Shown here: positions 17,060 to 60,611 of the stretch, one piece after another
How the letters are laid out: each line of letters starts with the position of its first letter
How positions within the stretch are numbered: position 1 is the stretch's first letter
Source of the DNA: Candidatus Omnitrophota bacterium
GTDB lineage: Bacteria; Omnitrophota; Gorgyraeia; Gygaellales; Profunditerraquicolaceae
Direction: 5' to 3'
Length of the DNA stretch: 64,000 nt
Assembly (NCBI GenBank): GCA_003598025.1
Contig: QZKH01000003.1
Location: 311,218-375,217 of the forward strand
Notes under the pieces: generated by a model
Seen by the model: the letters and a program-made list of their open reading frames with translations, nothing else
What the model was told of the DNA's origin: nothing
Database searches by the model: none
Made by a program: the position numbers and the translations under genes

Positions 17060-18469
17060 CTATCGGTTCCTCTTAAAAATATTGAGAACAGCCGTCTTTG
17101 ACATATTAAGAAACTCCAAAACCAGCATCTTTGCCTCAAACACCGTCTTTAGTTTTGTTATCCTGTCAAATATGTATTCTGGCCTCAAATAGAACCTCCT
17201 GAAGGCAATATCCCTTAATTCTCTCAATCTCTGATAGGGTATACTGCCGGTCTCAATTACGGGGCTAAAAGAACCGTCGAAACTGCCGTCATCTGAGTTG
17301 AGCCAGTCATTCTCCAGACATTCTTTACGCAATTCTGTCCCAACTATGGGAATGGCAAAATTAAACGAAGCATAATCACATCTAAGCTTGATTGCAAAAT
17401 CAATTGTATTTATAATATCTTCTTCGCTTTCACCGGGTATTCCTATAATAAAATATCCTATAGTCTTTATACCATGCTTATGAGCTAACCTGAAAGCCTG
17501 CTCTATGGTCTCAATCTTCATATTTTTTGAATAACGGTCCAATATCATCTGGTTTGCAGATTCTACTCCGATATGTATAGCATGGCAACCTGCGCGCTTC
17601 ATGGAAACCATGCGTTCCTCATCTATTGAATCAGCCCTCATATCACATACCCATCCGAGCTTTATCTTATTTTCTATGATATTCTGGCAAAGCGCCAAAG
17701 CGTGTTTCTTTACGCTTCCAAATGAAACATCCCTGAAAAAAACTTCCCTTATCCCTAATTTCTCTACATACCTTAATTCATCGGTTATGTTATCCACATC
17801 TCTCATAATATACGGTATATTGGAAGAAACACAGAAAGCGCATTTACCTACACACCCATAGCTTGATATCACGCTGGTCAGCGGGATCCTCCTCCCATGG
17901 CTCAGCCTGTATTTGGAAAAGTCAAGCTGTTCATGCCTTGGGACAGGATAACTAAAATAACCTGTAGAATACTTTGTCTTCCCGCAAATTACCACGTCAT
18001 TCTTCCTGACAGCTAAATTGTTTAATTCTGACGTATCATTTTTCAGAAATCCTAATATGTCATCGCTGGTAAAATTTAATAATACTGCGTCCAAAAAAAC
18101 ATTATCCTGCATCTCCTGAACAGGGTTATTCCGCAAAAATCCGCCTTCCCCGATTATAAGCATGTCTCTAAATGAATTCTTTACTTTATAGGCAAATCCC
18201 AAGTCGTTACACTTGCTTGACGACCCGGCCATAAATATTAAAGCATACGGAGCGGCCTTTTTAATAATCTCCATCGTTTGATCGTTAGTAAGCCTTAACG
18301 CATTGGCGTCAATTATACTAATGTCAAATTCTTTAGAAAGTATCCCGCTTAGGACAAGAAGGTCAACCTGAGGCCAGCAATATAGCCCTTTTGAAACTGT
18401 GCTACTATACATATCGCGCATGTTTAAAGTAGGTGCCGGAGGATTCAATAAGACTATTTTTTCTTTCAT
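17060..18469 (-). CDS. B12-binding radical SAM enzyme (class B)
   Basis: 469 aa. There is an N-terminal cobalamin-binding-like domain, then the SYGCVGKCAFC CxxxCxxC cluster and a radical SAM core. Confidence 0.85.
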   Translation of the reverse strand: MKEKIVLLNPPAPTLNMRDMYSSTVSKGLYCWPQVDLLVLSGILSKEFDISIIDANALRLTNDQTMEIIKKAAPYALIFMAGSSSKCNDLGFAYKVKNSFRDMLIIGEGGFLRNNPVQEMQDNVFLDAVLLNFTSDDILGFLKNDTSELNNLAVRKNDVVICGKTKYSTGYFSYPVPRHEQLDFSKYRLSHGRRIPLTSVISSYGCVGKCAFCVSSNIPYIMRDVDNITDELRYVEKLGIREVFFRDVSFGSVKKHALALCQNIIENKIKLGWVCDMRADSIDEERMVSMKRAGCHAIHIGVESANQMILDRYSKNMKIETIEQAFRLAHKHGIKTIGYFIIGIPGESEEDIINTIDFAIKLRCDYASFNFAIPIVGTELRKECLENDWLNSDDGSFDGSFSPVIETGSIPYQRLRELRDIAFRRFYLRPEYIFDRITKLKTVFEAKMLVLEFLNMSKTAVLNIFKRNR

Positions 18470-19446
18470 GTAATCAGGCCTTTTGATTTAATGCAGCTTA
18501 TAAGGTCGGTTATAGTAGTATCGAGGCTTAAGTAATCCATTTTTAGCAAGCTTCTTGATTTAGAGTTATCACAGAAGTTATTTTCTCTGACCATATTAAC
18601 CTTGGCTACTGTAACCGGCGGGTTAATTTTAGTGATCTTAGCTGATTTTTCGGCAAAAAAAGCCAATGCTAATGCTGCAGGATATGGCAATTCCAGCAGC
18701 ATTTTCTTGTTTTTTGAAATATCGGCGACTTTAATTAAGAAATCGCGCAAAGTAATATTTACATTACCCAATATATACCTCTGCCGGGGAAGACCCAGAT
18801 TAATGGCTTTCAGGATTCCCATGGCAACATCCCGCACATCTACAAGGTTAAAGTTACCGTTAATAAAAAGAAAAACCAGCCTGCTTTTTAAATAATCCGC
18901 GGTTACCTTGTTTATCCCCGCCTGTATAGAATGGAATGGCCCGATTACAGAAGTAGGGTTGACTATGGTTATAGGCAACCCACGGCCGCTATAATCAATA
19001 GCCAATTTCTCAGCTAATAATTTAGAGCGGACATACCCATCGCATGAATGAGAAGAAAAATACTGGCTGCTTTCGTCAATGAGCTGGCCTTTGCCTTGCC
19101 CTGACAAAGTCGCTCTCGTGCTTACATAAATAACTTTCTTAAAGCTTAAAGATAAAGCAGAATCCAACAAATTCTTTGTTCCTAAGAAATTTATTGTGTT
19201 ATAGCTATCTTCATTTATGACCCAGGGAGCGCTTACGGCAGCAAGATGCACAAGCGTGTCACAGCCGGACATGCATTTTTCCAAAGAGCGTCTGTCTCTT
19301 ATATCTCCACGGACAACTTCGAACGGACAACCAGACAAAACCGATCCCTCCCTAAGAAGGACCCTTGCGTCCAAATTATTATTCTTAAGCAATACAATAA
19401 AATGCCTGCCGATAAAACCAGTAGCCCCAGTGACAAAAATCTTCAT
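18466..19446 (-). CDS. NAD(P)-dependent epimerase/dehydratase-family oxidoreductase
   Basis: MKIFVTGATGFIGRHF and YVRSK (YxxxK) are present. It has a 4-nt overlap with the upstream radical SAM gene. Confidence 0.7.
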   Translation of the reverse strand: MKIFVTGATGFIGRHFIVLLKNNNLDARVLLREGSVLSGCPFEVVRGDIRDRRSLEKCMSGCDTLVHLAAVSAPWVINEDSYNTINFLGTKNLLDSALSLSFKKVIYVSTRATLSGQGKGQLIDESSQYFSSHSCDGYVRSKLLAEKLAIDYSGRGLPITIVNPTSVIGPFHSIQAGINKVTADYLKSRLVFLFINGNFNLVDVRDVAMGILKAINLGLPRQRYILGNVNITLRDFLIKVADISKNKKMLLELPYPAALALAFFAEKSAKITKINPPVTVAKVNMVRENNFCDNSKSRSLLKMDYLSLDTTITDLISCIKSKGLIT

Positions 19447-19447
19447 G

Positions 19448-20155
19448 TTATCTGTTTTTAATGTTTAAATTGATATACAGGCGGACTAAATCCCTTAAGG
19501 TGCAACATGCCCTTTTAAAGAAACCATACCTGGTAGGCCTGATTTCAGCGACTTCAACAGGCAATTCCACTATCGAAAGTCCGGCTCTTTGCGCCCGGAT
19601 CATAAGCTCGGTATCAAATAACTCTTTCTCTAAAACGCACTTATCGATAAACAAGTTTACCTTCTGGCTACTGATAACCTTGATACCATGGGTATCTGTC
19701 CCCTTATACCTGAATGTAACTTTAATCAGAATGTTTAAAAGCATGGTAATAAATTTACGGGTAAACGGCCTATTATCGCGGGAACCTGACAGGACTTTTG
19801 AACCGACGATAAAGTCATTATTCTTTAAAAGCTGCAACGATTCTTTTAAAAATTTTATATCCCAAAAATCGATATTAAAAATGGCTATATTCATGCCTGA
19901 TGCATTTTTAATCCCGGCCTTTAAGGCCTTGCCGTAATTAGACTCAGGCAGGCTGATCAAGCGAAACTCCCGCGGATATGCTTTTTGAAGCGACCTGCAG
20001 ATATTCAGGGTATTATCAGAGCTGCCGTTTTCGATTATTATCACCTCAAAATCTTCTATATTTCCTGCTTTGGCCTCTTGTATAATGGTTGACACTGAAG
20101 ATTCAATATACTTCTCTTCGTTATATGCAGGGATGACAATGGAAAGTTTATTCAT
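19448..20155 (-). CDS. GT2, DPM1-like polyprenyl-phosphate sugar synthase
   Basis: LSIVIPAYNEE, a DxD region and GTDTHGIK are typical of dolichyl/undecaprenyl-phosphate glycosyl synthases. Confidence 0.8.
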   Translation of the reverse strand: MNKLSIVIPAYNEEKYIESSVSTIIQEAKAGNIEDFEVIIIENGSSDNTLNICRSLQKAYPREFRLISLPESNYGKALKAGIKNASGMNIAIFNIDFWDIKFLKESLQLLKNNDFIVGSKVLSGSRDNRPFTRKFITMLLNILIKVTFRYKGTDTHGIKVISSQKVNLFIDKCVLEKELFDTELMIRAQRAGLSIVELPVEVAEIRPTRYGFFKRACCTLRDLVRLYINLNIKNR

Positions 20156-26839: not shown

Positions 26840-27955
26840 TCAGGCCTTTTCTACCTCCGCCGGAGAACAAACTTTTTCTACCAAATCACAAAATAACGGG
26901 GCATTAACATTAAGCGAGTACCTTAATATTACTTTTTCTCTGGCTTTTATACCGATCTTTCGGCGTAAATCGTGATCCTCAATCAGGCTTGATAATTTTT
27001 CAAACCATTCATTAAGGTTTTTTGCCAAAAGACCGTCAACCCCGTCATCAATAATCTCCTTATTTGCTCCCACAGAAGAACATACACAAGCGACACCTGT
27101 ACTCATATACAGTAATGCCTTAAACCCACATTTGCCCCGGCACCATAAATCATCGTTTAAAGGCATAATGCCTATATCAAAATCACGCAGATCATCTGCT
27201 TCGCGTTCAATCTGCCAATCCCTGTATTCAAACATAGCATTACTATTCTTTTGGCCGCTTGCGCCTATAATCCTGAACACAAGTTTATCCTTAAACTTAA
27301 GAAACAGCTGCTTAAAAACCGGCTCTAAAGGATATAAATACTGCTCAGTAGTCGGGCTGCCCATCCATCCTACGATAACTTTTTCCCTCTGACGGGTATG
27401 CGGCGCCGGACAAAAATACTCGGTATCTACAGGAGTCGGGATCACAGTAACATTCGGATTAAAACGTTGAGCATATTCTTTTAAAAACATGTTACCGGCT
27501 ATTACTTCTTTACTAAGCGAAATGATCTTTGAGGCATTGTTATTGTTGCGGAAAAGCTTTACCAGCTTGTTATTTGGGCTTGAGTTTGGCAAGAAAACAG
27601 CATCATCAAAATCGAATATTAGCGGTTTCCCCAGCAGATGCACCAGTTTTTCAAAGATAACCGGGCCTAAAGGCAGTGACTCACGGTATACGTAGACCGC
27701 ATCATATCTGAAAATTGACATGATATCTGCCAGCCTTCTTAACAGGCCTAGCATAAAAAAGAAAATCTTTCTTATGCTGCCCTTATCCTTATAAACTATC
27801 TTAAAAAAATAGCTCGACATGAAGGGGCTTATGAAGCCGTCAATTTGCCGCTCTTTAAGATATGGTAAATACTGCCATATCCTGAACCTGCAGCCCGCTC
27901 CTTCATAAGGCACCGGACTTATAAATATGATTTTCTTCCTATGGCTTTTGGCCAT
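26840..27955 (-). CDS. GT-B (GT4-like) glycosyltransferase
   Basis: The C-terminal domain has FEYRDWQIEREADDL...GIMPL and LLAKN. The start is placed at internal MAKSHRKKIIFIS. The longer ORF extends to 28126. Confidence 0.6.
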   Translation of the reverse strand: MAKSHRKKIIFISPVPYEGAGCRFRIWQYLPYLKERQIDGFISPFMSSYFFKIVYKDKGSIRKIFFFMLGLLRRLADIMSIFRYDAVYVYRESLPLGPVIFEKLVHLLGKPLIFDFDDAVFLPNSSPNNKLVKLFRNNNNASKIISLSKEVIAGNMFLKEYAQRFNPNVTVIPTPVDTEYFCPAPHTRQREKVIVGWMGSPTTEQYLYPLEPVFKQLFLKFKDKLVFRIIGASGQKNSNAMFEYRDWQIEREADDLRDFDIGIMPLNDDLWCRGKCGFKALLYMSTGVACVCSSVGANKEIIDDGVDGLLAKNLNEWFEKLSSLIEDHDLRRKIGIKAREKVILRYSLNVNAPLFCDLVEKVCSPAEVEKA

Positions 27956-45183: not shown

Positions 45184-45878
45184 AAACTAAGCCTGAATTT
45201 AATTATTGCCAAAAGCACCTTAAAACCTATACGCCAGTGCAGCTTCTTTCCTTCCCGGTGAGTCCTGGGAACATAATCTATCGGGATCTCATAAATATTT
45301 TGTCCGTTTTTAATAAGCCTTGTCGTGATTTCTGCTTCAATCTCGAAACCATTGGATTTTAAATGTAATTTCTTTGCGACCTCTTTTGTGAAGACTTTAT
45401 GGCACGTAGCTATATCCGAAAGCCGGACCAGGAACAGAATGTTCACTGCCCAGGTTATAAGCTGGTTTCCGATGTAACTGCCAAACCGGGTCATTCCCCT
45501 GCCCCTTAGAAATCTGGAGCCAAATACGACTTTTTTATGGCCTGCAATTATCGGATTTAATAAGTACGGGTATTCTGCCGGCAGGACTTCCAGATCTGCA
45601 TCCTGGATCAGGAAAATATCACCGCTTGCCTCTTTAAACCCCAGCCGTATTGCTGCGCCTTTACCCTTCCTTTTCTCTTCGTGTATTACTTTTATATCTT
45701 TTCTTCCGAGATTCTGCAAAATCTCTTTTGTCCCGTCAGTCGAACAGCCGTCAACTACGATTATCTCTTTTTCAAGCCCGATATCTACATCATCTATCCG
45801 TTTTATGATCTCACGGATAGTGCGCTTTTCATTATAAACTGGTATTATAATCGATACGCTCTTCATTCCCTGATCCAC
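45180..45878 (-). CDS. GT2, DPM1-like polyprenyl-phosphate sugar synthase
   Basis: VSIIIPVYNE, VVDGCSTDGT and QDADL are present. 232 aa. Confidence 0.8.
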   Translation of the reverse strand: MDQGMKSVSIIIPVYNEKRTIREIIKRIDDVDIGLEKEIIVVDGCSTDGTKEILQNLGRKDIKVIHEEKRKGKGAAIRLGFKEASGDIFLIQDADLEVLPAEYPYLLNPIIAGHKKVVFGSRFLRGRGMTRFGSYIGNQLITWAVNILFLVRLSDIATCHKVFTKEVAKKLHLKSNGFEIEAEITTRLIKNGQNIYEIPIDYVPRTHREGKKLHWRIGFKVLLAIIKFRLSF

Positions 45879-49632: not shown

Positions 49633-51110
49633 TTAAAACTCCCGTAGAATCTTAAAACCTGCCTCTTTGCCCAGGGAGGCATATCAATTTTTTCGATATA
49701 GACGATATCAGCCTTAGAGAATATTTTCAGCCTCTTTACTAACAAATACACAAGGCTAAAGACCAGGAACGAAGAAATTAGGTTTATTAACAATCCCCTA
49801 TTAAATAAGCACAAAATAGATACGATTATTGCCGGCATACTGCAGAATAAAGCCCGAAAATTTACTATTCCAAACTGCTTGTTTATAATGAACATAACCG
49901 CTGCGCATGCTAAAAAGCTGCTTGCGGCTGTGGCAACTGCCGCCCCAGTTATCCCGAATGCCGAAATAAATACGAAATTAAGCAAAATACAAATAACCGC
50001 GGTGATTAAATTTATGCTTCCTGTGAGGCGGATAAAATTAAAGACCGTTGAAACAGGATTATAAAAATATTTAATGCCCATAAACAAACTGCCTAAGGCC
50101 AGTATAATGAATATATTAATTGATTCGGCGTATTTGCTTCCGTATAACATAGGCATGAAAACACTGGCAAATACTATCCCGAGGGTTACTAAGAATGAAA
50201 AAAATAAAGCACATTGAGGCACAAATTTATTGAGATAAAATTTTACGTGTTCATTCCTATCCTGTATCTTATATGAAGTTATAATCGGCATTATCAGGGT
50301 ATACAAGAGTTGCGGGAGCATTACTAAATTTGATGTTAATGTCCAGGCTGCAGAATAAATCCCTACTGCGTAAGTAGAAATAAGTACTTTCAGCATATAT
50401 TTATCCACCCAATCCAGCGAAAAATTCCCCACAACAAAAAATATTACCGGCCAGGAAAAACTTAAGATATCACGGATCATCTTTGTATCGATGCCAAAAT
50501 GGCATATCCCTTTAATCCTCGGCCAAAATATAAGGATCGCGATAATATAAGATAAAGAAAGACAGCTGACCGCAAGGTTAAATCCGAAACTCTTAAAGGA
50601 AATTGCCAAAAACAGCAAAATGATAAAAACAAGGCTTCTTACCAGAGGCATTAATCCGAAAACTTTGAACTGAAGGCTACCCTGAAAACAAAAGTAAAAA
50701 AGATTAAATATTGCAAAAAATACGATGTAAATAAAAATTAAAATTGTTACGAAATGGCTATCTATGCTTAAAAAACTGCTGATCTTACTTCTTAATAAAA
50801 ATAACACTAAACCGACTATTATGGTATTTACAAAGACTATCGTTAATTCAGAATAAAAAGTCTTCCCGATAGACTTAGTTTTAAGAAATTCTTCGCTTGC
50901 AAACTTTGCCGCAGCCGGATTCAAAACCCAAGTAGAAGCAAACATGCTTAATATCTGCGCAGAGAACAGAAAAAGATTATACCTACCGTAATCATACGGC
51001 CCCAGAATCCTGGCTAATATGCTTACGGAAATTATCCCGCCAGCAAAAAGAAACAGCTGAGCCATAGATAAAAAACCATAATTATAAAACAAACGCCTTG
51101 CCTGGGGCAT
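49629..51110 (-). CDS. Wzx-type oligosaccharide flippase (second MOP-family protein)
   Basis: 493 aa with 12-14 TM helices. It has a Wzx-like N-terminus. Confidence 0.6.
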   Translation of the reverse strand: MPQARRLFYNYGFLSMAQLFLFAGGIISVSILARILGPYDYGRYNLFLFSAQILSMFASTWVLNPAAAKFASEEFLKTKSIGKTFYSELTIVFVNTIIVGLVLFLLRSKISSFLSIDSHFVTILIFIYIVFFAIFNLFYFCFQGSLQFKVFGLMPLVRSLVFIILLFLAISFKSFGFNLAVSCLSLSYIIAILIFWPRIKGICHFGIDTKMIRDILSFSWPVIFFVVGNFSLDWVDKYMLKVLISTYAVGIYSAAWTLTSNLVMLPQLLYTLIMPIITSYKIQDRNEHVKFYLNKFVPQCALFFSFLVTLGIVFASVFMPMLYGSKYAESINIFIILALGSLFMGIKYFYNPVSTVFNFIRLTGSINLITAVICILLNFVFISAFGITGAAVATAASSFLACAAVMFIINKQFGIVNFRALFCSMPAIIVSILCLFNRGLLINLISSFLVFSLVYLLVKRLKIFSKADIVYIEKIDMPPWAKRQVLRFYGSFN

Positions 51111-51115: not shown

Positions 51116-52249
51116 TCAGTTGATTTTTATCCTTCCGGATACAATTGACATTTTGTTCAAAAGCTCTTCTTCTACCTTCATCGATTTACCGCTTAAATTC
51201 CTGTTTTCCTGCGGGTCACTACCCAAATCATATAGTTCTCTTTTTGCCGTTGCTTCGTTATATATGAGTTTCCAGTCTTTTGTCCTATAAGCACAAATAT
51301 TTGGCTTATTCGGAGAAGGGTGCGGACCGCTTAATGGCGCAGTCTCTATATAAGCCTCTCTGTCAATGACCCTATTCTCCTCTATGCCGTCATAAAAAGA
51401 TTCTCCCTGCATTTTTTTAAAACCCTCTTTCTGTTCAATCCCGAGCATGGCCATTAAGGAAGGCATTATATCAATAGTCCTGACCAGCGCATTGACCTGC
51501 CTGGCCTTCGGAAGTAAGGAATTGTATATAAAATATGCGAATGTCATTACTGTATAATCATATACAAATACGCCATAGCATTTTTCACCCGGCTTCTCGC
51601 CCAAAGAACAGCCATGGTCAGTCAATACCACTATTAAAGTATCTCTGAGGGCATTATCATTAGAAATCAAATCAATTATTTCACGCAGATACCTTCCAGC
51701 CTGCGCGACAAAACCATCATAACGCTCCAGGTTCCTATCTGTTTGGTGAAAATATTCTTTATCATCATCAGTAAATTTATTTACGACCTGACTGATAATC
51801 CCTGTATGGATATTGCTGTATTGGAAGAACAGAAAAAATGGGGCTCTTGTGCCTGCCTCTTTTATCATATCCTTATGCCTTAACGCAAGGTTATCTTTAT
51901 ATTCATCATGCACTGTTATTTCCGAGAAACCCTGAGCAGGAAGTATAATTTTCGACAAGACATCTGCCTTTGTATAATACCCTTGGCCCAAAAGATACTG
52001 CTGCAGCGTCATGCAATTATCAGCATCAAAATCAAGATTGCCGTAATAGGAATCTACACCGTTGCGGCAGCCATACATCCCGGTTAAAATCGCATGTACA
52101 GAGGCAACTGTGTATGGTGCATATGTAACCATGTTTGGAAAAAAAACACCTTCCTGTTTTAAATCCTGAAAAATCTGGAAAGAATCCAGCCTGTCTGCTC
52201 TAAGCTGGTCAATCATCAGAAAGATTATATTGGGCTTATTTTTCATCAA
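51116..52249 (-). CDS. sulfatase-family (alkaline phosphatase superfamily) enzyme with Thr in place of the formylglycine Cys
   Basis: PNIIFLMIDQLRAD is present. YAPYTVASVHAILTG aligns with sulfatase CxPSRAALLTG, but with T at the nucleophile position and no P/R. This is the LtaS/EptA/OpgB type. It is soluble with no N-terminal TM. Confidence 0.6.
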   Translation of the reverse strand: MMKNKPNIIFLMIDQLRADRLDSFQIFQDLKQEGVFFPNMVTYAPYTVASVHAILTGMYGCRNGVDSYYGNLDFDADNCMTLQQYLLGQGYYTKADVLSKIILPAQGFSEITVHDEYKDNLALRHKDMIKEAGTRAPFFLFFQYSNIHTGIISQVVNKFTDDDKEYFHQTDRNLERYDGFVAQAGRYLREIIDLISNDNALRDTLIVVLTDHGCSLGEKPGEKCYGVFVYDYTVMTFAYFIYNSLLPKARQVNALVRTIDIMPSLMAMLGIEQKEGFKKMQGESFYDGIEENRVIDREAYIETAPLSGPHPSPNKPNICAYRTKDWKLIYNEATAKRELYDLGSDPQENRNLSGKSMKVEEELLNKMSIVSGRIKIN

Positions 52250-53424
52250 TGTATGTTCCTCAGGATATTCATTATGCCACCCGGCGAAATACGCCTGGGA
52301 TTATTCGCTAATCTTTCTAAATTAGCGTTCCTGGAAATAACCATCAACTGCCTTTTTGTCTTTACGCCGAGTTTTGAAAGGCTTGTTTCAAGATTTATCT
52401 CTCTCATCAAATAGTATATTTTATCTCTGCAGCTATGGGCATCACGGCAACCCATTAAAGAATATAACTCTTGCAGGCTTTTCTTCACAAAGCTGCTTCC
52501 TCTTGTATCAGCCGAATCCGGATCTGTTATCCTGGAATTAAAAATAAGCGCCTCTCCGATAGTTAAGGCAACAGCATGGCCATGTGGTATGCCAAAATAT
52601 GAAGTTAAGGGATAAGATAAGGCATGTGAAACGGTTGTTTTAGTGATATTGATGGCTTTCCCCGCCAAATGCGCCGCCAGAGACATAGCCTTGCGGCTTG
52701 AACGGGATGGTGATTTAACAGCCCTAACAATATTATTTAACACCAGGTTAATCGCGCGTTTGGCTAATTTTTTAGAAGCCCTGTTTGAAGCAACGCTCCA
52801 ATAGGACTCTACTGCCTGGCAGAAAGCATCCATTCCCGTACAGGCAGTCAGATATTCATCCATAGATGTGCTCAGCTGCGGGTCAATAATAGCTGCTTCA
52901 GGCAATAAATATTTGTTAGAAACAGAATACTTTACTTTGTTACGGTAGAATACCGCAAAGTGCGTTGCCTCGCTGCCGGAACCGGAAGTCGTAGGTATGG
53001 CTATCAGGGGTTTCGGTTTACTGTATGTGTTTTCCTTTGATTTAACATAGTAGTCTATGCTTCTACTTTGGGGAGAGAAGAAATTGACTAATTTTGCCAG
53101 ATCAATAACGCTGCCTCCACCAACAGCAATAGATAGGTCCGGCAAGAATTTTCTATGCGCCCTGATACCTTTCTTAATATCAGATAATTTGGGGTTATCG
53201 CTAAAATCAGAGAATCTGCTGACTCGGTAATGTTTAAGAGTTTTGGTTAAGACGAATTTTGCACCGCTTTTTCCGAACGAACTTTTTCCTGAAAATAAAA
53301 GTATTTTCTTAGGGTGATACTTATCCAAAAGTTTATCCAGTTTTTTCAAACTGCCAAAACCAAAAAATTCTTTATATTTCTTCATTTTATTTAATGGATT
53401 CCATAAACTTTTTCTTAATTTCAT
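52246..53424 (-). CDS. iron-containing (group III) alcohol dehydrogenase; candidate phosphonoacetaldehyde reductase (FomC/PhpC-like)
   Basis: VGGGSVIDLAK, AIPTTSGSGSE and HGHAVA are Fe-ADH motifs. It lies directly downstream of ppd. Confidence 0.75.
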   Translation of the reverse strand: MKLRKSLWNPLNKMKKYKEFFGFGSLKKLDKLLDKYHPKKILLFSGKSSFGKSGAKFVLTKTLKHYRVSRFSDFSDNPKLSDIKKGIRAHRKFLPDLSIAVGGGSVIDLAKLVNFFSPQSRSIDYYVKSKENTYSKPKPLIAIPTTSGSGSEATHFAVFYRNKVKYSVSNKYLLPEAAIIDPQLSTSMDEYLTACTGMDAFCQAVESYWSVASNRASKKLAKRAINLVLNNIVRAVKSPSRSSRKAMSLAAHLAGKAINITKTTVSHALSYPLTSYFGIPHGHAVALTIGEALIFNSRITDPDSADTRGSSFVKKSLQELYSLMGCRDAHSCRDKIYYLMREINLETSLSKLGVKTKRQLMVISRNANLERLANNPRRISPGGIMNILRNIH

Positions 53425-54514
53425 ATAACGAGGTTGTTGGCCGCCCTAATCCGGGCCTTGAGCCCTTTTTTACGATAACTTCTATTAAACACGGCCCATG
53501 CTGTTTTGTATCATTCAAAGATTTTATCAGCTGGCTGACAGAATAAACCCTGCATGCTTTCCTATATCTGCAGGCAAGGGCAATAGAAACAATATCAATA
53601 TTGAGCGCGGCTGTAGCTTGCCCTCCTACAGAGTCGTGACAGCCATTATTTAAAACGATATGCACAAAATTAGCAGGGGAAGTTGAGCCGATTATTGCCA
53701 TGCCGCCCATGTGCATAATAAGAGCCCCGTCTCCATCAAGGCAGTAGATCGATTTCCTGCTCTCTAACGCAACTCCTAATGCAACCTGAGAAGCATGCCC
53801 CATGGAACCAACTGTCATAAAATCCAGGTTATGCGAAAGCTCAAGTGACTGGCGAACCTCAAACAACTCCCTGGAGATATAGCCTGTTGAAGAAACAACA
53901 ATACTCCGGTCACTGATATTGCTGATTATGGTTTTTATTGCTTCTTCGCGGCTCATAAATGAAAGGTCGCTCTTTGGTGTTTTTGACGCTCTCTTTATAT
54001 AGGGCTCAAAGGTTCCCTTTTTCACTATAATTGCTACAGGACAGCTGCGCTTAATCATAATCCCGTAGAGTTCTTTGACAATTTTATCAGCTCCGGCAAG
54101 ATCCCCCGGCAGGATCCTGTAAGGAACACCCAGCGCCTTCAACATCCCTAAAGTGACTTTACCCTGTTTTAGATGCTGAGGCTCATCTTTAACCTGCGGC
54201 TCCCCGCGCCAGCCGATCAACAACAGCATCGGTATTCCATAAACTTCAGGATCAGCCAGAGATAAAAGTGGGTTAACGCTGTTACCCAACCCTGAATTCT
54301 GCATATATACGAGCCCCGGCCTGGCGGTAGCTAAGAAATTCCCTGCAGCTAAAGCTATCGCATTGCCCTCATTAGCTGCGATAATATGTTTTTTCCTGCC
54401 GACCGTATCCTCAATAAATGCACAAAAATCCTTTAAAAGAGAATCCGGAACTCCGGAAAAAAAGCTTATTTTTTTTCGCGTAACCAGTTTAAAGAAATCC
54501 CTTGGTTTCAGCAT
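53387..54514 (-). CDS. ppd: phosphonopyruvate decarboxylase (ThDP-dependent)
   Basis: 375 aa. [11 protein letters not shown]-x-NNG is the ThDP GDG-x24-NN motif. Its length and position next to the PEP mutase fit Ppd/Fom2/AepY. Confidence 0.8.
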
Positions 54515-55821
54515 GTATTATCCTTCTCCCAATTTATTAAGCTGATTATTTCTTTTATCGGCATACACAAATTCTCACAATCATACGCCCTTTCGTTCTT
54601 GAGGATCTCTATGGCGACCTTTTCCATAGCAGGATAAGCGGCGCGCAGCAACTGGTTTGCATAAATAACCATATTCACGCCGTTTTTTATGAGCTCATTT
54701 TCATGGACTTGGCTGCAAGTAGAGGGTGCGACAACTAAAGGCACCTTTTTGTCAAATTCGGCATATTCCTTGCAAAAATTAAATATTTCCTCCGGGGTAT
54801 TTTGCCTGGTGTGGATCATGACCCCATCTGCACCGGCACCGATATAAGCCTTTGCCCTGCTGACAGCGTCATCCATACCCTTATTTAAGATAAGGCTTTC
54901 TACCCTGGCTATAATCATAAAATCATCAGTAACCTGGGATTTCTTGCCCATACTGATCTTATGACAAAAATTTTCTATACTATCCTGTGTCTGATTTGCT
55001 TCCGCGCCAAAAAGAGAATTTTTCTTAAGCCCTATCTTATCTTCGATTATTACCGCTGAAACCCCCAGCCTCTCAAGTGTCTTGACTTCAAAAATAAAAT
55101 GATCAGTTATACCGCCGGTATCCCCATCAAATATTATTGGCTTGGTGGTAACTTCTAATATCTCATTTAAGGATATCGACCGCGAGGTCAAATCAACACA
55201 CTCTATATCTGGCTTGCCCTTTGCAGTAGAATCAGTAAGGCTGCTGAGCCAGATGGCATCAAACTCTTTGTTTACCTGCCCATTAGAAAACCGCGCATTC
55301 TCTACTATCAATCCGGTAATACCATTATGGGCTTCAAGCACCCTGACAAAGCCTTTTGCCTGGAACATCCTTCGAAGCTGCCTGATCCTTACCTGAGGAG
55401 TAGTGCCTATTGAACGCAACTTTTCATGCAGCAGGGTTGAGGATATGCCTGCAGTATATGGGATTTCAACCAGCCTGCCGCCCCATTTTTTTAACGTTTC
55501 AATCACCCTATCCCTGACCTTTGCCTGTACACCCTCCCTCCAGTCATCACCGTGCACGACATAATCGGGGCGCAACTCTTCAAGGTTCCGGACATAATCC
55601 AGCGTATCCTGAGGCACCACCATGGAGACACCTTTTATATTCTCTATGATTATTTTTCTCTGCTCAAAAGACAGAAAAGGGATCCTCTTGTAGCTTGCTA
55701 TAGCGCTATCAGTAAGAAGCCCAACTGTCACCTCCCCGAGTTTTTTTGCTTCATTAATGATATTCAGGTGCCCGGGATGGACTAAGTCAGCGCTCATTGC
55801 CACATATACTTTTTTCGACAT
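54508..55821 (-). CDS. bifunctional cytidylyltransferase / phosphoenolpyruvate mutase (Fom1-like)
   Basis: The N-terminal ~130 aa have [16 protein letters not shown], the HxGH cytidylyltransferase motif. The C-terminal ~290 aa have [53 protein letters not shown] and [12 protein letters not shown]. These match the PEP mutase active-site blocks block by block. Confidence 0.9.
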
Positions 55822-55839: not shown

Positions 55840-57591
55840 CTATTTTATGTAGCCAAGTTTTTTCAGTTCTTGGCTCACTGCTTCTATATCCTTCTTATTA
55901 TTTTTACTTATATATTCCTGCCTTTTAACGCGGCAATGAGAATAATCCTTGAATCTTGGCTCTTGCAGACTTAAAAAACTATCATTAAAAATCTCTTTAT
56001 TTACTTTTCCATCCAGGTCTTCTGGTATCGGCAGTGACCTTGAATATAATACATTGGCAAATATATCTACTATATCTAAACCAATGACCCTTGAATTTTT
56101 ATTTGCCTTTGGGCCGCAAAATATAAACAATGCTTCGATACTATGGTCTAAAACCGGCTCTTTGAATTTTCTTACATGTTTTCCCGATATGATTTTCGTC
56201 CTGTCACTAAACCCGCTGAATCCTATATATTCATTTTTTAGCTTCGCGATTATATCGGGCATCTCATTTAGAAACCGGCCTGAAAACACCTCTTCTCTTA
56301 AATAAACCCTTTCAACAATTTTTTCACCTGTATCCGGATCGGTGATTTCACTCAGTAATTTTATTAACTCCTGCCTGAATAACTCATATTCCCTGCCTTG
56401 GTTAATAATACCAAACGGCCGCTGGCCTCTGGTATTAATCGTTACGGGCAAATAATTGCTTGTCGGAGGAAGCAGACTGTAAGCCTTGGTCTTAAGCCAG
56501 TCAAAAGGACAAGGATTAGTTAAATTGTCATCGATAATATCTTTAGAAAACCTGAAAAAAGGCACTGAAGGAAGGTTAAAAGAAACTTTAATCTTATATA
56601 ATAAATTCATGATTTTATGCCATAAGCTAGCCTTCTTATCATGCTCTTTATCAGCAAAGTTTCTTACTTGCTCATTAATACTCACTAAGCCTAACAACTT
56701 ATTTTCATAAAGCCACCTATGCAGTAAAAATTCCTTATTATAGTTAGCAGCTCCGTGGTCAGAAACGATAAAAAGGTCGGTTTTGGCCAGATCTACCGCT
56801 GCCATGATTTCGCTTAATATTGAATCAAGCTTAATATAAAGGCTGTCAATATACTCTCCGTTAAGGCCTAGCATGTGGTGGGCTTTATCGGGGCTCATGA
56901 AACCAAGCGTAAACATGTCCCAATCGTAATTCTCCATTATGCATAATGCCGTATCCTTGGTTTTATTCATCTTATACACATACGGTTCTGGCCTTGAAAG
57001 ATCATAATCAAAAAATTTAGTTACTGCCAGTTCCGTAAAATACCCAACCTTTCTTAAGGGCTCACAAAGGAAAGCAGGATAACAGAAGTTTTCATCCTTT
57101 GGGCTTAAATAATCCGAAATCATTATGCCGTTTATCCTCTCAGGAGGAAATGAAAGCGGTATATTCATGACAACTGAATTCAAACCGAAATCACTAAAAA
57201 TATCCCAGTACCTGGGCTCATCAATCATAGAAGCATTAACTACTACGGGGCTTAAAATATTCTTATCGTATCTATAATAACCGGTAACGCCGTGTTTAGC
57301 AGGATTTTTTCCGGTAATAAAGCTTGGCCATGCCGGCAGGCTGTCAGGAGGAATAGTGGAATTCATTTTTCCGCTTGCCCCGCTATTGATCAACATCTTA
57401 AAAGTAGGCAAAAGCCCCTTTGAAACCATATCTTCCACTTTATCAAGGCTTATGCCGTCAATAGCTATCACGAGAGTCCTACATTGAGAAACAGACGACC
57501 TGCCTGTAGGTATAAGCTTAAGCGCGTCTTTAAGCAGAGCCATCGGCTCAAATTGCCTTTCAAATTTCTGCGCATCAAAGCTTTTGCTCAT
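55840..57591 (-). CDS. alkaline-phosphatase-superfamily type I phosphodiesterase/nucleotide pyrophosphatase-like protein
   Basis: VIAIDGISLD is the DG metal motif. PPDSLPAWPSFITGKNPAKHGV aligns with NPP [22 protein letters not shown], placing Ser at the nucleophile position. 583 aa. Confidence 0.6.
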   Translation of the reverse strand: MSKSFDAQKFERQFEPMALLKDALKLIPTGRSSVSQCRTLVIAIDGISLDKVEDMVSKGLLPTFKMLINSGASGKMNSTIPPDSLPAWPSFITGKNPAKHGVTGYYRYDKNILSPVVVNASMIDEPRYWDIFSDFGLNSVVMNIPLSFPPERINGIMISDYLSPKDENFCYPAFLCEPLRKVGYFTELAVTKFFDYDLSRPEPYVYKMNKTKDTALCIMENYDWDMFTLGFMSPDKAHHMLGLNGEYIDSLYIKLDSILSEIMAAVDLAKTDLFIVSDHGAANYNKEFLLHRWLYENKLLGLVSINEQVRNFADKEHDKKASLWHKIMNLLYKIKVSFNLPSVPFFRFSKDIIDDNLTNPCPFDWLKTKAYSLLPPTSNYLPVTINTRGQRPFGIINQGREYELFRQELIKLLSEITDPDTGEKIVERVYLREEVFSGRFLNEMPDIIAKLKNEYIGFSGFSDRTKIISGKHVRKFKEPVLDHSIEALFIFCGPKANKNSRVIGLDIVDIFANVLYSRSLPIPEDLDGKVNKEIFNDSFLSLQEPRFKDYSHCRVKRQEYISKNNKKDIEAVSQELKKLGYIK

Positions 57592-57596: not shown

Positions 57597-57953
57597 TTAA
57601 TCCTTGCCTTTGCCGTGTCCGGCATTACCATTAAAGGCCTCAATTTCTCTCTTTAATTTCTCGTACTGTTCCATCTTCCAGACAAAAAATTCCTGCGTAA
57701 GCCTGACCTTAGTCTTTATGCCATCAGGAGTCAACATGTACATATATCCAATTTTATTTTTTGAGTTTTTAAAATTCTTAATCTCAATAAAGCCTTTTTC
57801 AACAAAGGCATTGATAAGAAAATTGACTTTGCCTAGGCTGATCTTCAGCTTTTGTGAAAGGTAGCGCTGGGTGATCTGGGGATTAGCTTCGATTTCCGTT
57901 AGGACCCCTAAGGAATGCTCTAATTTGACTATATTATTACCATTATTATCCAT
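57597..57953 (-). CDS. MarR-type winged-helix transcriptional regulator (EPS-locus associated type)
   Basis: 118 aa. ITQRYLSQKLKISLGKVNFLINAFVEKGFI is the HTH. It is the first gene after the only clear promoter-like gap in the 3' half of the window. Confidence 0.6.
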   Translation of the reverse strand: MDNNGNNIVKLEHSLGVLTEIEANPQITQRYLSQKLKISLGKVNFLINAFVEKGFIEIKNFKNSKNKIGYMYMLTPDGIKTKVRLTQEFFVWKMEQYEKLKREIEAFNGNAGHGKGKD

Positions 57954-57977: not shown

Positions 57978-58021
57978 ATATATCAGATAAAATAAAAAAC
58001 TCAAATAATATTTTGTAAAAG

Positions 58022-58050
58022 ATTATACTGTAGGCGGTTACATTTGACTA
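58022..58050 (-). promoter_or_regulatory. putative sigma70-like promoter for the MarR-phosphonate operon
   Basis: On the minus strand: TAGTCA (-35-like, 4/6), an 18-nt spacer, then TATAAT (perfect -10). This lies in the 94-bp gap upstream of the regulator. Confidence 0.3.
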
Positions 58051-59124
58051 AAAATTAATACTGGCGCCTGAAGTGACGACAAAATCTCTGGAATTTAACT
58101 GCTGCAGCTTAATAAATACTCTACTATCTTTGCCGAAAACCCCCCTTACGCCTAAATTTAACTTCATGCCCAAGGATTTGCCCTCTTTGGAAAGCAGCTC
58201 AATGACTATCTCATTGTTATCTCCTAGTCTAAAATTTGACCCGAATTGGATTAACTTAACCTGGCTATCACCGTATTTAACCTCAAACGATAACCCGGTT
58301 TTTCTAAAAAGCTTCCAAATCCCATAAATAGATATGATTTTATATTGATTATCCTTCTTAGATAACCCTGCACCTAAGCGATATTTAATACAACCATCTT
58401 TGGGATAAAGATTCGGGCTTTCTAACTGTACTTTGAATTCAAGACCGCTATCCCTTGAATCAGCAAGTATATATTTTAACCTGTTGGTTGCATCAATGCT
58501 CCAGAATCCGTCAAATGCAATTTCATGATATGACTTTTTCTTGGTCTTAAGCTCCCTTCGATTGTAACTATATGAAATATTCTGGTTATCATTCAACTGC
58601 CAGGAATTCTTTAAAACAATACTACTGTCCCTTTTTGTAGCCACTTCAAAAGTGAGCCGGTTCTTTTTGTCCGCACACCAGAGGCCGGTGATGGCCATTA
58701 AATAAAAATGGCCCAAATAAAACTTATGTACCGATGTTTTATCCGGGCCGAGATTATTAAAATAAACGCCCTTTTCCTCTACAGTCTTGATTTCAAATCT
58801 CAGACTGTTATCATTGACGGCGAGTATATCGCCTTTTAAAACAAGCCTCTGAAGCCTGCCGTTTTCTTTCGAGCCCGTAACGGTAAATACCAGGTTATGG
58901 TCTTTATCCAGGCTCCATCTGCCTTCAAATTCGATTTTCGAAGGGAGATTCTCCTTTATCCTCCAGCGGTTTGGTTCATTAAGCTCATATATAAGATTAT
59001 TATTCTTATCGGCCTTGAATCTGCCGTTTACCGTTATGGCCCTTTTGGATCCGGGCTTTTTGATTATCAAACGGTTATTATTATCTACGGAATAAATCGG
59101 CATTAATTGCTCCGGCAGCTGCAT
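58048..59124 (-). CDS. hypothetical tandem-repeat protein
   Basis: 358 aa with at least four ~40-aa repeats of the form G-x-W-x-x-D-x-x-N-R-L-x-F (GRWSLDKDHNLVF, GLWCADKKNRLTF, GFWSIDATNRLKY, GIWKLFRKTGLSF). There is no signal peptide. It ends in ...ASINF. Confidence 0.4.
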   Translation of the reverse strand: MQLPEQLMPIYSVDNNNRLIIKKPGSKRAITVNGRFKADKNNNLIYELNEPNRWRIKENLPSKIEFEGRWSLDKDHNLVFTVTGSKENGRLQRLVLKGDILAVNDNSLRFEIKTVEEKGVYFNNLGPDKTSVHKFYLGHFYLMAITGLWCADKKNRLTFEVATKRDSSIVLKNSWQLNDNQNISYSYNRRELKTKKKSYHEIAFDGFWSIDATNRLKYILADSRDSGLEFKVQLESPNLYPKDGCIKYRLGAGLSKKDNQYKIISIYGIWKLFRKTGLSFEVKYGDSQVKLIQFGSNFRLGDNNEIVIELLSKEGKSLGMKLNLGVRGVFGKDSRVFIKLQQLNSRDFVVTSGASINF

Positions 59125-60611
59125 TTGCCCCTTTTAAAATCAGCTATATGCCCTATTACCTTCTTTGCGGCCATAAAATAGTATTTTAAATCATCCAGAT
59201 CCCTGATTGAGATTAGTTTCCTGAATATAAATTCCGGAGAAAGTGAAATCTTATACATGTATTCAACCATTTCTTTAAGTTTGTCGTCGCTGATCAAAGT
59301 TTTCATCACAGGCTTAGTCATATCATAGTCATCCCAATCCGAATACTTCAGCCAACCGTTAGATCTGCATTCATCAAAGAGCATGGAGCCCGGATAAGGG
59401 ATCACAATAGTTGCCTGCATAGTATAAGCATAACCTTTTAGCAACAGCCATCTGCCTAATTTTAAAGTCTTAACGGCATCATCGTACGTCTCCCACGGAT
59501 AGCCGAACATTATAGTGATGTGTGGATACAGGCCTGCACGCCTTGCATCTTTACAAGAAGTTATTATTTCCTCAACCTTCAAATTTTTATTAATCCGGTC
59601 AAGTGTGCTTTGGTTTGCTGATTCTATTCCAAATAGAAGCAGGCGGAAACCCGCGCTCTTCATGCTTTTATATTCCTCAAAATTTAAGGCGCCAAAACGC
59701 ATATTGCAATCAAAATAAACATCTTTATTATAACCTCTCTGCCTGGCCCCATTACAAAAGTCGCTAAGCCAACTTCCCGTAGGAAGGCTTCCTGAATCAT
59801 CCATTATTTCTTTCACGCCGTATTTATCTATCAGTATCCCGACCTCATCTAAGACGCTGTTAACGCTGCGGCTCCTAAACCTGGGATAAAGGGTAGGCCA
59901 ACTACAAAATGTGCATTTGCCCCACCAGCAATCTCTGGCTGACATTATGTACGTCCCGGGTTTTAGCTTATAATTTCCGTTCTTAAACGCATAATTTCTC
60001 CATTTAGTTAAATCCCGGTCGATAAACGGGATGTTGTCTAATTCGTGGTCAAGCTTAAACTTGCCGGTATTGCTTATACGGTTATCATCTCTATACCAAA
60101 TCCCCGCCTCAAGCTTTGTTATCGTGCCGGAGTTTAACGAAAAAGTGCTGCTCTTTGCGATTAAATTACACAAGTTAAGCAAAAGGAAATCATAATCTCC
60201 TCCCGTCAGAATAAAATCTACCTTACAATTCAGCATAGACTCTTCAGGAAGCGCTGTTACATGGTCGCCGAATAATACAGTTTTTACCTTTTTGCCGTCT
60301 ATGCTTAACGAGCTCAGTTCGTCAATCATCTTCCAGTGCTGCTTTACTACCGGGGTCTTGGTTTCAAAAGCTATCAGGTCCGGTTTCTCTTTTTTTATAA
60401 TCTCGATAAATTCTTGCCGTGAAATATTCTCAGCAATAGAATCCAGCCACAAAACATCATAGCCGTTTCTCTTTAGTAAAGTCGCGGCCTGGGCAGGGAC
60501 CACAGGATAAATATAAGTAGGCTCAGTGAAATACTGGAATTGCCTGTTTTGACCCAGGGTAGGATATCCTTTCGCTGATATTAATGGCGGATAAGCTATT
60601 ATTACTTTCAA
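59103..60611 (-). CDS. B12-binding radical SAM enzyme (class B), non-canonical Cys spacing
   Basis: 502 aa. There is an N-terminal B12-binding-like domain. The cluster is SARDCWWGKCTFCS (C-x4-C-x2-C). FGIESANQ is a radical SAM core block. Confidence 0.75.
   Translation of the reverse strand: MKVIIAYPPLISAKGYPTLGQNRQFQYFTEPTYIYPVVPAQAATLLKRNGYDVLWLDSIAENISRQEFIEIIKKEKPDLIAFETKTPVVKQHWKMIDELSSLSIDGKKVKTVLFGDHVTALPEESMLNCKVDFILTGGDYDFLLLNLCNLIAKSSTFSLNSGTITKLEAGIWYRDDNRISNTGKFKLDHELDNIPFIDRDLTKWRNYAFKNGNYKLKPGTYIMSARDCWWGKCTFCSWPTLYPRFRSRSVNSVLDEVGILIDKYGVKEIMDDSGSLPTGSWLSDFCNGARQRGYNKDVYFDCNMRFGALNFEEYKSMKSAGFRLLLFGIESANQSTLDRINKNLKVEEIITSCKDARRAGLYPHITIMFGYPWETYDDAVKTLKLGRWLLLKGYAYTMQATIVIPYPGSMLFDECRSNGWLKYSDWDDYDMTKPVMKTLISDDKLKEMVEYMYKISLSPEFIFRKLISIRDLDDLKYYFMAAKKVIGHIADFKRGKCSCRSN

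Follow-up and report, generated by a model that had tools for sequence, protein, structure and literature searches.

A stretch of 64,000 nucleotides (nt) from a Candidatus Omnitrophota metagenome-assembled genome (MAG; assembly GCA_003598025.1, contig QZKH01000003.1, positions 311,218 to 375,217), referred to here as the window, encodes five radical S-adenosylmethionine (SAM) enzymes, designated R1 to R5, whose possible functions are considered in this work. The window is a 64-kb single-strand super-locus for the cell-envelope glycan: all open reading frames (ORFs) of interest (≥150 amino acids, aa) are on the minus strand, as are all the window features given below, and Pfam scans covered the 54 ORFs of this size on the coding strand. 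Based on Pfam and NCBIfam matches, it encodes three Wzx-type flippases, two Wzy-like proteins, three GT-C (PMT_2) proteins, many GT2 and GT4 glycosyltransferases, sugar-nucleotide enzymes including the rml genes at 3.7-6.5 kb, an asparagine synthase, several class-I methyltransferases and one phosphonate cassette. A literature search on radical SAM enzymes in glycan loci of Omnitrophota returned nothing specific.

The five ORFs lie exactly where an earlier note, made from the letters of this DNA, had located them. R1 (17060..18469, 469 aa) has a diverged, AprD4-like N-terminal domain of Rossmann-like fold and matches PF04055 only. R2 (30249..31706, 485 aa) and R3 (40572..41996, 474 aa) show canonical B12-binding domains (PF02310, 58.9 and 85.5 bits; PF04055, 98.4 and 68.3 bits, respectively), R4 (59103..60611, 502 aa) is a core Omnitrophota gene of the B12-domain type, and R5 (31722..32828, 368 aa) carries a partial SPASM/twitch C-terminal domain (PF04055, Fer4_12 and a borderline SPASM match). 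Radical_SAM (PF04055) was detected in all five (55-98 bits), which places them in the superfamily. The clusters that the note had described, three CxxxCxxC and one Cx4Cx2C in R1-R4, are seen in the translations: C206-VGK-C210-AF-C213 (CVGKCAFC) in R1, C191-PYS-C195-VY-C198 (CPYSCVYC) in R2, C208-PSR-C212-RY-C215 (CPSRCRYC) in R3 and C228-WWGK-C233-TF-C236 (CWWGKCTFC), the Cx4Cx2C variant, in R4. Likewise, R5 has the described CxxxCxxC cluster (C30-NAK-C34-SM-C37, CNAKCSMC) and a Cys-rich C-terminus with five Cys (274, 292, 337, 339 and 343). The description of the N-terminal domains of R1-R4 as B12-binding-like also holds at the level of the fold, evidenced by AlphaFold2 models for R1 and R4 and by Pfam for R2 and R3; loss of this fold was seen for none of them. 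Pairwise identity among R1-R4 is 24-33% (33% for R2 vs R3), and hhalign shows homology of the R1 and R3 families over their whole length. R1-R4 are thus old paralogues rather than recent duplicates; the superfamily is known, whereas their own families are uncharacterised.

The database relatives of R4 number more than 6000, with 63-70% identity for the best 120, and its sequence is present unchanged on contig JAGUZT010000008.1 of assembly GCA_020060685.1, where the protein is named as from a Candidatus Omnitrophota MAG. When a single genome was scanned for each species, at least 568 R4 loci were returned, almost all labelled Omnitrophota, with orthologues 60-70% identical in more than 560 species. 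From these the 80 best loci were sampled with 10 kb of flanking sequence on each side, and every window protein was compared to them by tblastn. All 80 contain the R4 orthologue, in a module of conserved order that starts with a Wzx-type flippase (62290..63546; Polysacc_synt; 62 of 80 loci) and continues with a small GT2 resembling polyprenyl-phosphate sugar synthases (61509..62318; AglJ/ArnC/PpgS-like; about 62% identity, 71/80), a GT2 with C-terminal transmembrane (TM) helices (60608..61573; MftF-like, 125 bits; TM segments 238-290; about 55% identity, 75/80) and R4. A 358-aa protein without Pfam or NCBIfam matches (58048..59124) is a facultative member of the module, present in 18 of the 80 loci and directly 3' of the R4 orthologue in 17 of these; it is internally repetitive, with recurring 'NNRL...F/W' segments.

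The Cx4Cx2C spacing is retained in 46 of 46 R4-family members and 43 of them match PF02310 at E ≤ 0.01; R4 itself scores 30.0 bits, just under the gathering score of 32.1. In its AlphaFold2 model (pLDDT 90.5) a radical SAM barrel is flanked by a Rossmann-like domain with five strands at the N-terminus and by a helical domain at the C-terminus. A fold search was discarded as a discriminator for this protein, AprD4, TsrM, MgmA and CysS scoring alike. In the N-terminal domain of this family, residues 21-26 form an invariant Q-N-R-Q-x-Q motif within an insertion. As judged from its relatives, R4 is a conserved Omnitrophota function with no assigned chemistry. An orthologue of RmlA or of the gene at 2749..3741 (rml/GDP-sugar genes) was found ≤3.5 kb downstream of R4 in 22 of the 46 loci with enough downstream sequence; in this window these genes are 52-55 kb away from R4. 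The segment from about 6.4 to 58 kb therefore behaves as a variable block between conserved anchors, and positions 6400-58000 look like a hypervariable glycan block. Between the R4 module and the phosphonate genes there is a 118-aa HTH_24 regulator (57597..57953; PF13412 in the gene call at locus L001) which, considering the promoter-like sites at 58050-57975 (weak evidence), probably starts a new transcription unit including the phosphonate genes.

R1 is preceded by a small GT2 (19448..20155) and by its putative partner, an HpnA-like extended short-chain dehydrogenase/reductase (SDR; 18466..19446; TIGR03466, 236 bits over the full length, cut-off 368), which overlaps it by 4 nt. Directly downstream there is a class-I SAM methyltransferase (16159..16995), and such methyltransferases are also neighbours of more distant R1-like genes of L168 and L170. 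Among nine gene contexts of R1 and R3 relatives that were inspected, the order GT2-SDR-radical SAM recurs in L166 and in a Falkowbacteria locus (L167), and the R1 family includes an SDR-radical SAM fusion (P0243) and a GT2-radical SAM fusion (P0358). The best relatives of R1 are only 52% identical and most have no precomputed PF02310 match; this domain was not detected by Pfam in R1 and occurs at E ≤ 0.01 in only 31 of 83 family members. In profile comparisons the N-terminal domain of the family barely aligns to cobalamin binders, and the family profile matched AprD4 (6FD2) with 174 bits and QCMT, TsrM, OxsB and TokK with 94, 80, 45 and 42 bits, respectively. The AlphaFold2 model of R1 (pLDDT 95.3) has the same layout as that of R4, with a five-strand Rossmann-like domain before the radical SAM barrel and a helical domain after it. 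The top Foldseek match of this model, and the nearest solved full-length structure, is AprD4 (E 1e-28, TM-scores 0.78/0.81), followed by MgmA (4e-22, 0.61/0.67). AprD4 is a radical SAM 1,2-diol dehydratase that binds no cobalamin and works with the NADPH reductase AprD3 (PMC12931638, PMC5461906); in 2017 it was described as the sole dehydratase known among radical SAM enzymes (PMC5461906). R1 is probably an AprD4-like enzyme that does not depend on B12.

Residues 16-36 of R1 form a beta-hairpin insert after the first N-terminal strand, with R18, D19, K27 and D36 invariant in the family alignment; the insertion of the R4 family is analogous, and these conserved polar inserts may contribute to the wall of the substrate pocket or of the pocket in which cobalamin would be expected. 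In a search of 5.8 billion proteins R3 and R4 returned their own sequences and R1 had no 100% match (best 52%); perhaps the deposited annotation lacks the R1 gene or contains it with a different gene call.

R3 lies in a cassette shared by bacteria and archaea. In the order of transcription, this comprises a small GT2 of the AglJ-like polyprenyl-phosphate sugar synthase type (45180..45878; TIGR04182, 140 bits), a polysaccharide deacetylase with DUF3473 (44335..45183; TIGR03006, 242 bits), a FemAB-like (Acetyltransf_6) acyl/aminoacyl transferase (43302..44375; TIGR03019, 151 bits), a TM-rich GT-C (PMT_2) membrane glycosyltransferase (42010..43305) and R3. Relatives of R3 are 55-68% identical in Omnitrophota and 43-49% identical in DPANN, Heimdallarchaeota and Patescibacteria. 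A deacetylase and a FemAB-like gene are found beside R3-like genes on a Patescibacteria contig (L171), in a complete Heimdallarchaeota genome (L172) and on the contig of P0140; the corresponding cassettes of L171 and L172 also have a GT2 and, nearby, an LPG_synthase_TM gene, and in L172 a PMT_2 gene as well. The profile of the R3 family aligns through the B12 domains of OxsB, TokK, QCMT and CysS. The gene directly downstream of R3 encodes a membrane protein of the CDP-alcohol phosphatidyltransferase family (39850..40671; PF01066, 38 bits; weakly archaetidylinositol-phosphate synthase-like). From its TTG start this ORF overlaps R3 by 100 nt; as its Pfam match starts at residue 66, the true start is probably further downstream. 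It was rejected both as a partner of R3 and as a transferase of cytidine monophosphate-2-hydroxyethylphosphonate (CMP-HEP), since it is not kept with the R3 relatives; next to PepM the family occurs in only 1 of 80 phosphonate cassettes (L109).

R2 gave 7331 cluster representatives at E ≤ 1e-30 in a search of the full library, the best of them 64% identical. Several relatives (40-46% identity) are fused to sugar enzymes: to GT4 (P0369, P0376), to GT2 (P0385, P0432), to class-I methyltransferases (P0366, P0407, P0432) and to a DegT/DnrJ/EryC1 sugar aminotransferase (P0420). Directly after R2 the window encodes a GT4 glycosyltransferase (29024..30259) and then a class-I SAM methyltransferase (27939..29018), so that the functional association matches that of the relatives, which include fusions to each of these enzyme types. 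A role of R2 in sugar tailoring can be stated firmly, and it possibly acts on nucleotide sugars. Giant R2-like proteins, among them P0401 (2096 aa), P0418 (2331 aa), P0463 and P0486, have three to five R2-matching stretches; in P0401, the only one scanned with Pfam, there are four Radical_SAM and four B12-binding stretches. R5 is encoded 15 nt upstream of R2. Its SPASM match (PF13186) reaches 21.3 bits (cut-off 21.5) and its C-terminal pattern, C274...G-x4-C292 plus C337-x-C339-x3-C343, has five Cys vs seven in the full CX2CX5CX3C pattern. Only remote relatives of R5 are found in PDB (SkfB, Tes, BlsE), and no close homologue occurs in any of the fetched loci, which are the scope of this statement as no database search for R5 relatives was made.

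The phosphonate genes that the earlier note had proposed are genuine and extend over 52-56 kb. The first (54508..55821) encodes a cytidylyltransferase-phosphoenolpyruvate (PEP) mutase fusion of Fom1 architecture, with PF01467 and PF13714, a ten-residue Ppm motif (EDKxxxxxNS type) at residue 260 and a TIGR02320 score of 392 bits (cut-off 319.55), as expected of a Fom1-type enzyme. It is followed by a phosphonopyruvate decarboxylase (Ppd; 53387..54514; TIGR03297, 468 bits, cut-off 312.5) and a Fe-dependent alcohol dehydrogenase (ADH; 52246..53424; PF00465, PF25137), a putative phosphonoacetaldehyde reductase forming 2-hydroxyethylphosphonate (HEP), as judged from the PhpC/FomC precedent (PMC8942020). 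Given the precedent of PhpC/FomC and of the Fom1 cytidylyltransferase for such a gene set (PMC8942020, PMC6697681, PMC9088020), and with the three genes present in order, CMP-HEP is the likely product. In a sample of 80 metagenomic loci encoding a 62-76% identical fusion protein, Ppd adjoins PepM in 65 and the ADH follows Ppd in 54; the cassette is a self-contained module and is seen in many different contexts. Two soluble proteins of the alkaline-phosphatase superfamily bracket it. The one upstream (Phosphodiest, 55840..57591; PF01663, 126 bits; no TM) is a candidate phosphonate- or nucleotide-handling enzyme, with no orthologue beside any of the 80 related PepM cassettes. The one downstream, a sulfatase-family protein (51116..52249; PF00884), is kept, as the only one of the two, in the closest cassette (L085), where a 64% identical orthologue has the same position. 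A second Wzx-type flippase (49629..51110), linked to the cassette, has a 55% identical orthologue after the sulfatase-like gene of L085. The continuation of L085 with these two orthologues fits a decoration of the glycan rather than an antibiotic, and polysaccharides bearing HEP are known (PMC8942020). A LicD-type CMP-phosphonate transferase was not found in the window.

The connection of these genes with R1-R4 was examined from both sides. Among the 80 R4 loci, PepM, Ppd, Fe-ADH, Phosphodiest and sulfatase-like genes occur in 0-1 each, and R4 was rejected as a Fom3 equivalent on this basis. Conversely, a gene resembling B12-domain radical SAM enzymes is present in only two of the 80 related cassettes (L099 and L140), in both directly upstream of the PepM fusion; the other 78 have none. 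The enzyme of L099 (158-1723) scores 345 bits to the SD_1168 P-methyltransferase family (NF038361) and serves as a positive control, to be compared with 144 bits for R3, 131 for R2, 67 for R1 and 40 for R4. That of L140 belongs to no clear family (best match PhpK, 108 bits). Neither is orthologous to R1-R4, and both are better candidates for phosphonate modification than anything in the window. L099 (158-2428) also carries an extra stand-alone cytidylyltransferase, in L140 (6132-8469) the radical SAM gene is followed by a LicD/Mf1-like phosphotransferase, and in one further metagenomic cassette (L139, 7946-8833) a radical SAM/SPASM-like ORF, 22% identical to R5, lies between PepM and Ppd. No pepM was found in the nine contexts of R1 and R3 relatives, no FomD (DUF402) or HppE (cupin) gene was detected by Pfam in the 54 window ORFs and Fom3 is absent among the PDB matches of the radical SAM proteins. 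A conserved linkage of a radical SAM gene with pepM, ppd and a HEP-forming ADH, as expected for Fom3, was not observed in these samples.

For comparison with Fom3, GenK and GenD1, NCBIfam models were used as proxies. R1-R4 score far below all methylase cut-offs: 57-110 bits for PhpK (cut-off 600), 64-86 for KedN5 (700), 40-144 for SD_1168 (575) and 47-108 for the MCR Gln methylase (360). Their best NCBIfam matches are HpnJ and BchE, with 139-236 bits for HpnJ (TIGR03471; R3 236, cut-off 577.6). Orthology to HpnJ was rejected given these scores and the lack of hopanoid context, neither squalene-hopene cyclase nor HpnH/G/I being detected with Pfam and NCBIfam among the window ORFs. The N-terminal motifs GGxH and GEGE are present in the R3 family and occur in 0/83 and 3/83 members of the R1 family, respectively; their use as a test of cobalamin binding was given up since the genuine binders QCMT, TsrM and OxsB also lack the His. 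The lower-axial residues TokK W76, TsrM R69 and OxsB N186 map to different positions of R3 (T76, T77 or L78), and this mapping was dropped because the alignments disagree. An Rfam scan of the window matched no family, hence no cobalamin riboswitch. AprD4 has the Rossmann-like fold and does not bind B12 (PMC12931638), so that a B12-binding fold is insufficient to establish cobalamin dependence. Some enzymes of the superfamily do not methylate and some bind no B12 (PMC12931638), and R1 is nearest to one of these; the step from class B membership to C-methylation taken in the earlier note is not supported. R2 and R3 are likely cobalamin-dependent as predicted from their domains, and C-methylation is a plausible activity and the leading guess for both.

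The presence of five radical SAM genes in one glycan locus, which had been regarded as highly unusual, turned out not to be exceptional in comparable loci. One or two more B12-domain radical SAM genes are found within 10 kb in 13 of the 42 long R4 loci, L082 has three and L083 at least four, and L172 contains three plus one radical SAM/SPASM gene. L167 (a contig of Logan SRR2090174 with a protein named as from a Candidatus Falkowbacteria MAG) has nine or more radical SAM genes within 17 kb (1-17371); it is denser than the window, with several radical SAM proteins of about 300 aa in tandem together with PMT_2, AsnB, GT2 and the GT2-SDR-R1-like trio. Some R2-related proteins hold four or five B12-radical SAM modules in tandem. 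As such glycan loci recur in Omnitrophota, in the candidate phyla radiation and in archaeal lineages, among them Asgard, with 3 to 9 or more radical SAM genes in the latter groups, five in 64 kb are typical there. At the end of the window opposite to R4, a 362-aa ORF (404-1492) gave only faint ATP-grasp/PylC-like matches; its orthologues, 59-73% identical, are found after the rml-side genes in five Omnitrophota loci.

The explanation that we favour, giving it slightly better than even chances, is that R1-R4 each act in a different, independently conserved sugar-tailoring module, that they constitute no coordinated methylation system and that none of them is a Fom3 equivalent. R4 belongs to a core Omnitrophota module of Wzx flippase, two GT2s and radical SAM enzyme, often located beside dTDP-rhamnose genes elsewhere and here separated from them by about 52 kb of variable glycan genes that include the phosphonate cassette. 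R1, with the adjacent HpnA-like SDR and small GT2, would most likely abstract a hydrogen atom from a nucleotide- or polyprenyl-phosphate-linked sugar and bring about a rearrangement without B12; if it acts like AprD4/AprD3, the outcome would be a dehydration and then a keto-reduction, i.e., a deoxygenation. The R3 cassette (GT2, N-deacetylase, FemAB-like transferase, radical SAM and GT-C), shared with Patescibacteria and Heimdallarchaeota, probably acts on an amino sugar carried on a lipid, or on the N-acyl group of this sugar, with probable use of cobalamin and C-methylation as the foremost candidate reaction. R2, together with the GT4, the class-I methyltransferase and probably R5, tailors a sugar during assembly, a role that is shown by the fusions and whose chemistry is predicted. 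The cytidylyltransferase-PepM, Ppd and Fe-ADH would by themselves supply CMP-HEP for decoration of the glycan, as suggested by their family assignments and by precedent.

Several observations weigh against this explanation. The similarity between R1 and AprD4 is remote (20% identity) and the score to the AprD4 equivalog (NF033070) is 117.7 bits with a cut-off of 500, so that an AprD4/AprD3-like mode of action for R1 is suggested by analogy and is not a family assignment. AprD4 is also a top structural or profile match for R3 and R4, which makes the distinction of R1 one of degree, and the differences in N-terminal motifs are not diagnostic since QCMT, TsrM and OxsB share the lack of the His. 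The SDR is found beside the closer relatives of R1 (44-47% identity) and is absent from three remoter ones (38-42%); the neighbours of these are still GT2, PMT_2, deacetylase, class-I methyltransferase and AsnB genes. Among the R3 orthologues examined, the two closest (L082, L083) have no deacetylase or FemAB gene within 10 kb, and are located amid two to four further B12-domain radical SAM genes and small GT2s. In addition, R2 or R3 may methylate CMP-HEP in trans inside the same long operon. More generally, cobalamin binding cannot be read from sequence and the chemistry of R1-R4 is predicted.

The proposal of the earlier note, that R1-R4 are all cobalamin-dependent class B C-methyltransferases and that at least one of them is a Fom3 equivalent methylating the CMP-HEP made by the PepM cassette, appears very unlikely. 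The cassette has the Fom1 architecture, a Ppd and a FomC-like ADH, R4, the radical SAM gene closest to pepM, is encoded on the same strand about 3 kb upstream, and the two cassettes with a B12-domain radical SAM gene immediately upstream evidence that such pairings occur in nature. Against this, R4 orthologues are almost never near pepM, a regulator gene and promoter-like sites separate the R4 module from the cassette, 78 of 80 related cassettes have no B12-domain radical SAM gene, R1-R4 resemble neither the SD_1168-like enzyme of L099 nor that of L140, the inspected contexts of R1 and R3 relatives lack pepM, and HppE, FomD and other downstream fosfomycin-type genes were not found in the window. 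The R4 loci without pepM, the cassettes without radical SAM genes and the lack of FomD and HppE together leave the Fom3 assignment unsupported. Moreover, PF01467-Ppm fusions represent 23.6% of all Ppm proteins (PMC6697681), therefore the fusion is no signature of fosfomycin synthesis. A related alternative, to which we give clearly less than even chances, is that R2, R3 and R4 are genuine cobalamin-dependent radical C-methyltransferases acting on glycan sugars or N-acyl substituents, like GenK and GenD1, and that the glycan is C-methylated. This would agree with PF02310 in R2, R3 and nearly all R4-family members, with the alignment of the R3 profile through the B12 domains of the methylases TokK, QCMT and CysS, with the fusions of R2 relatives to sugar enzymes and, weakly, with a Leu of R3 aligned to Trp76 of TokK, a hydrophobic lower-axial residue; methylation is the commonest activity known for the class (PMC12931638; PMC11659888). 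On the other hand, no methylase family cut-off is reached and the best NCBIfam matches, HpnJ and BchE, are non-methylases. The lower-axial mapping is ambiguous, with OxsB Asn186 and TsrM Arg69 aligned to Thr76, class-I methyltransferases are already abundant in the locus and their fusions to R2 relatives are silent on the activity of the radical SAM part.

It is unlikely, although suggested by the best NCBIfam match of all four proteins, that one or more of them, R3 above all, carry out a radical ring contraction like HpnJ or calditol synthase, converting a lipid-linked deacetylated amino sugar to a carbocyclic, cyclitol-like unit. The R3 cassette with GT2, deacetylase and radical SAM mirrors HpnI, HpnK and HpnJ (PMC12324291), the SDR beside R1 is HpnA-like, and calditol synthase, also a radical SAM enzyme, turns the hexose head group of a lipid into a five-membered ring (bioRxiv 10.1101/2023.10.20.563219). 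The scores, however, are far under the HpnJ cut-off, the window has no hopanoid genes, nothing in hopanoid synthesis corresponds to the FemAB-like enzyme and the deacetylase is of the Polysacc_deac_1/DUF3473 type. HpnK, in turn, is a deacetylase of the YdjC type. Finally, the low-scoring NCBIfam matches to families of lipid, tetrapyrrole and ribosomally synthesized and post-translationally modified peptide (RiPP) enzymes, and the best matches of R5, which are heme and RiPP maturases, could mean that the radical SAM proteins are, for example, lipid, cofactor or RiPP enzymes that have nothing to do with the glycan locus in which their genes are located. This is extremely improbable: their adjacency to glycosyltransferases is conserved across many genomes, relatives of R1 and R2 are covalently fused to GT2, GT4, SDR and DegT domains, and the ORFs overlap or are tightly spaced on one strand. 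The embedding of the radical SAM proteins in glycan biosynthesis, as the earlier note had it, is borne out by these neighbourhoods and by the fusions to glycosyltransferases, SDR, class-I methyltransferases and DegT.

Considering the modular explanation favoured here, if these modules act on envelope glycans, radical chemistry, be it deoxygenation, C-alkylation or ring rearrangement, would be routine in the diversification of surface sugars in large uncultured phyla. To our knowledge, every characterised sugar-tailoring radical SAM enzyme with a B12 domain comes from antibiotic or lipid pathways. A more ambitious and rather doubtful proposal is that Omnitrophota, Patescibacteria, DPANN and Asgard share a radical SAM toolkit for editing (probably carrier-linked) envelope sugars, consisting of an AprD4-like enzyme with an HpnA-like SDR, the GT2/deacetylase/FemAB/B12-radical SAM/GT-C cassette and the phylum-wide Omnitrophota enzyme with its non-canonical Cx4Cx2C motif. 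Were it true, the AprD4-like enzyme and the SDR would make deoxy sugars of a primary envelope polymer by radical chemistry without B12, and the R3-type cassette would have been exchanged between bacteria and archaea. The GT2-SDR-radical SAM trio, the GT2-deacetylase-FemAB-radical SAM cassette and the Omnitrophota core module are concrete targets for biochemistry. The analysis also corrects a shortcut in annotation, as a B12-domain radical SAM gene near pepM does not mean Fom3.

Compared to known systems, the window resembles the fosfomycin pathway of Streptomyces (Fom1/Fom2/FomC/Fom3) in having cytidylyltransferase-PepM, Ppd and Fe-ADH in order. In contrast to that pathway, which includes the hydrolase FomD and the epoxidase HppE (PMC9088020), FomD and HppE were not found in the window, no radical SAM gene is conserved with cassettes of the window type (2 of 80 cases), and here as in L085 genes for a sulfatase-family protein and a Wzx flippase come next. 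With GenK, GenD1 and Fms7, R1-R4 share an N-terminal B12-binding-like domain on a radical SAM core, most clearly in R2 and R3, and sugar biosynthetic contexts, as well as, for R2, relatives fused to sugar enzymes. They differ by the scores of only 64-86 bits to the KedN5-type methylase subfamily and by their location in primary cell-envelope glycan loci of uncultured anaerobes instead of antibiotic clusters. R1 shares with AprD4, which in concert with AprD3 deoxygenates paromamine at C3', the full-length architecture, the best profile and structural match and a Rossmann-like N-terminal domain that is poorly recognised as B12-binding, and a putative oxidoreductase partner is encoded beside the radical SAM enzyme or fused to it. 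This partner is an HpnA-like extended SDR, and R1 is found with a small GT2 in a cell-envelope glycan locus rather than in an aminoglycoside pathway.

The order GT2, N-deacetylase and radical SAM around R3, the position of HpnJ as the top NCBIfam match of R1-R4 and the HpnA-like SDR of R1 recall HpnI/HpnK/HpnJ; apart from the low scores (139-236 vs 577.6 bits) and the absence of squalene-hopene cyclase and HpnH/G from the window, the R3 cassette differs by its extra FemAB-like transferase, and the GT-C enzymes of the window point to a polyprenyl-phosphate carrier and not to a hopanoid. The order of the R3 cassette also recalls ArnC/ArnD/ArnT, in which a GT2, a deformylase of the deacetylase family, a flippase and a GT-C enzyme follow a lipid-carrier logic. 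Radical SAM chemistry is not part of the Arn pathway; the likeness lies in the polyprenyl-phosphate-type GT2s, the deacetylase-family enzyme, the LPG_synthase_TM or flippase-like protein and the PMT_2 protein that surround R3 and the remoter relatives of R1, and by this analogy the substrate of the R3-type cassettes would be linked to a carrier.

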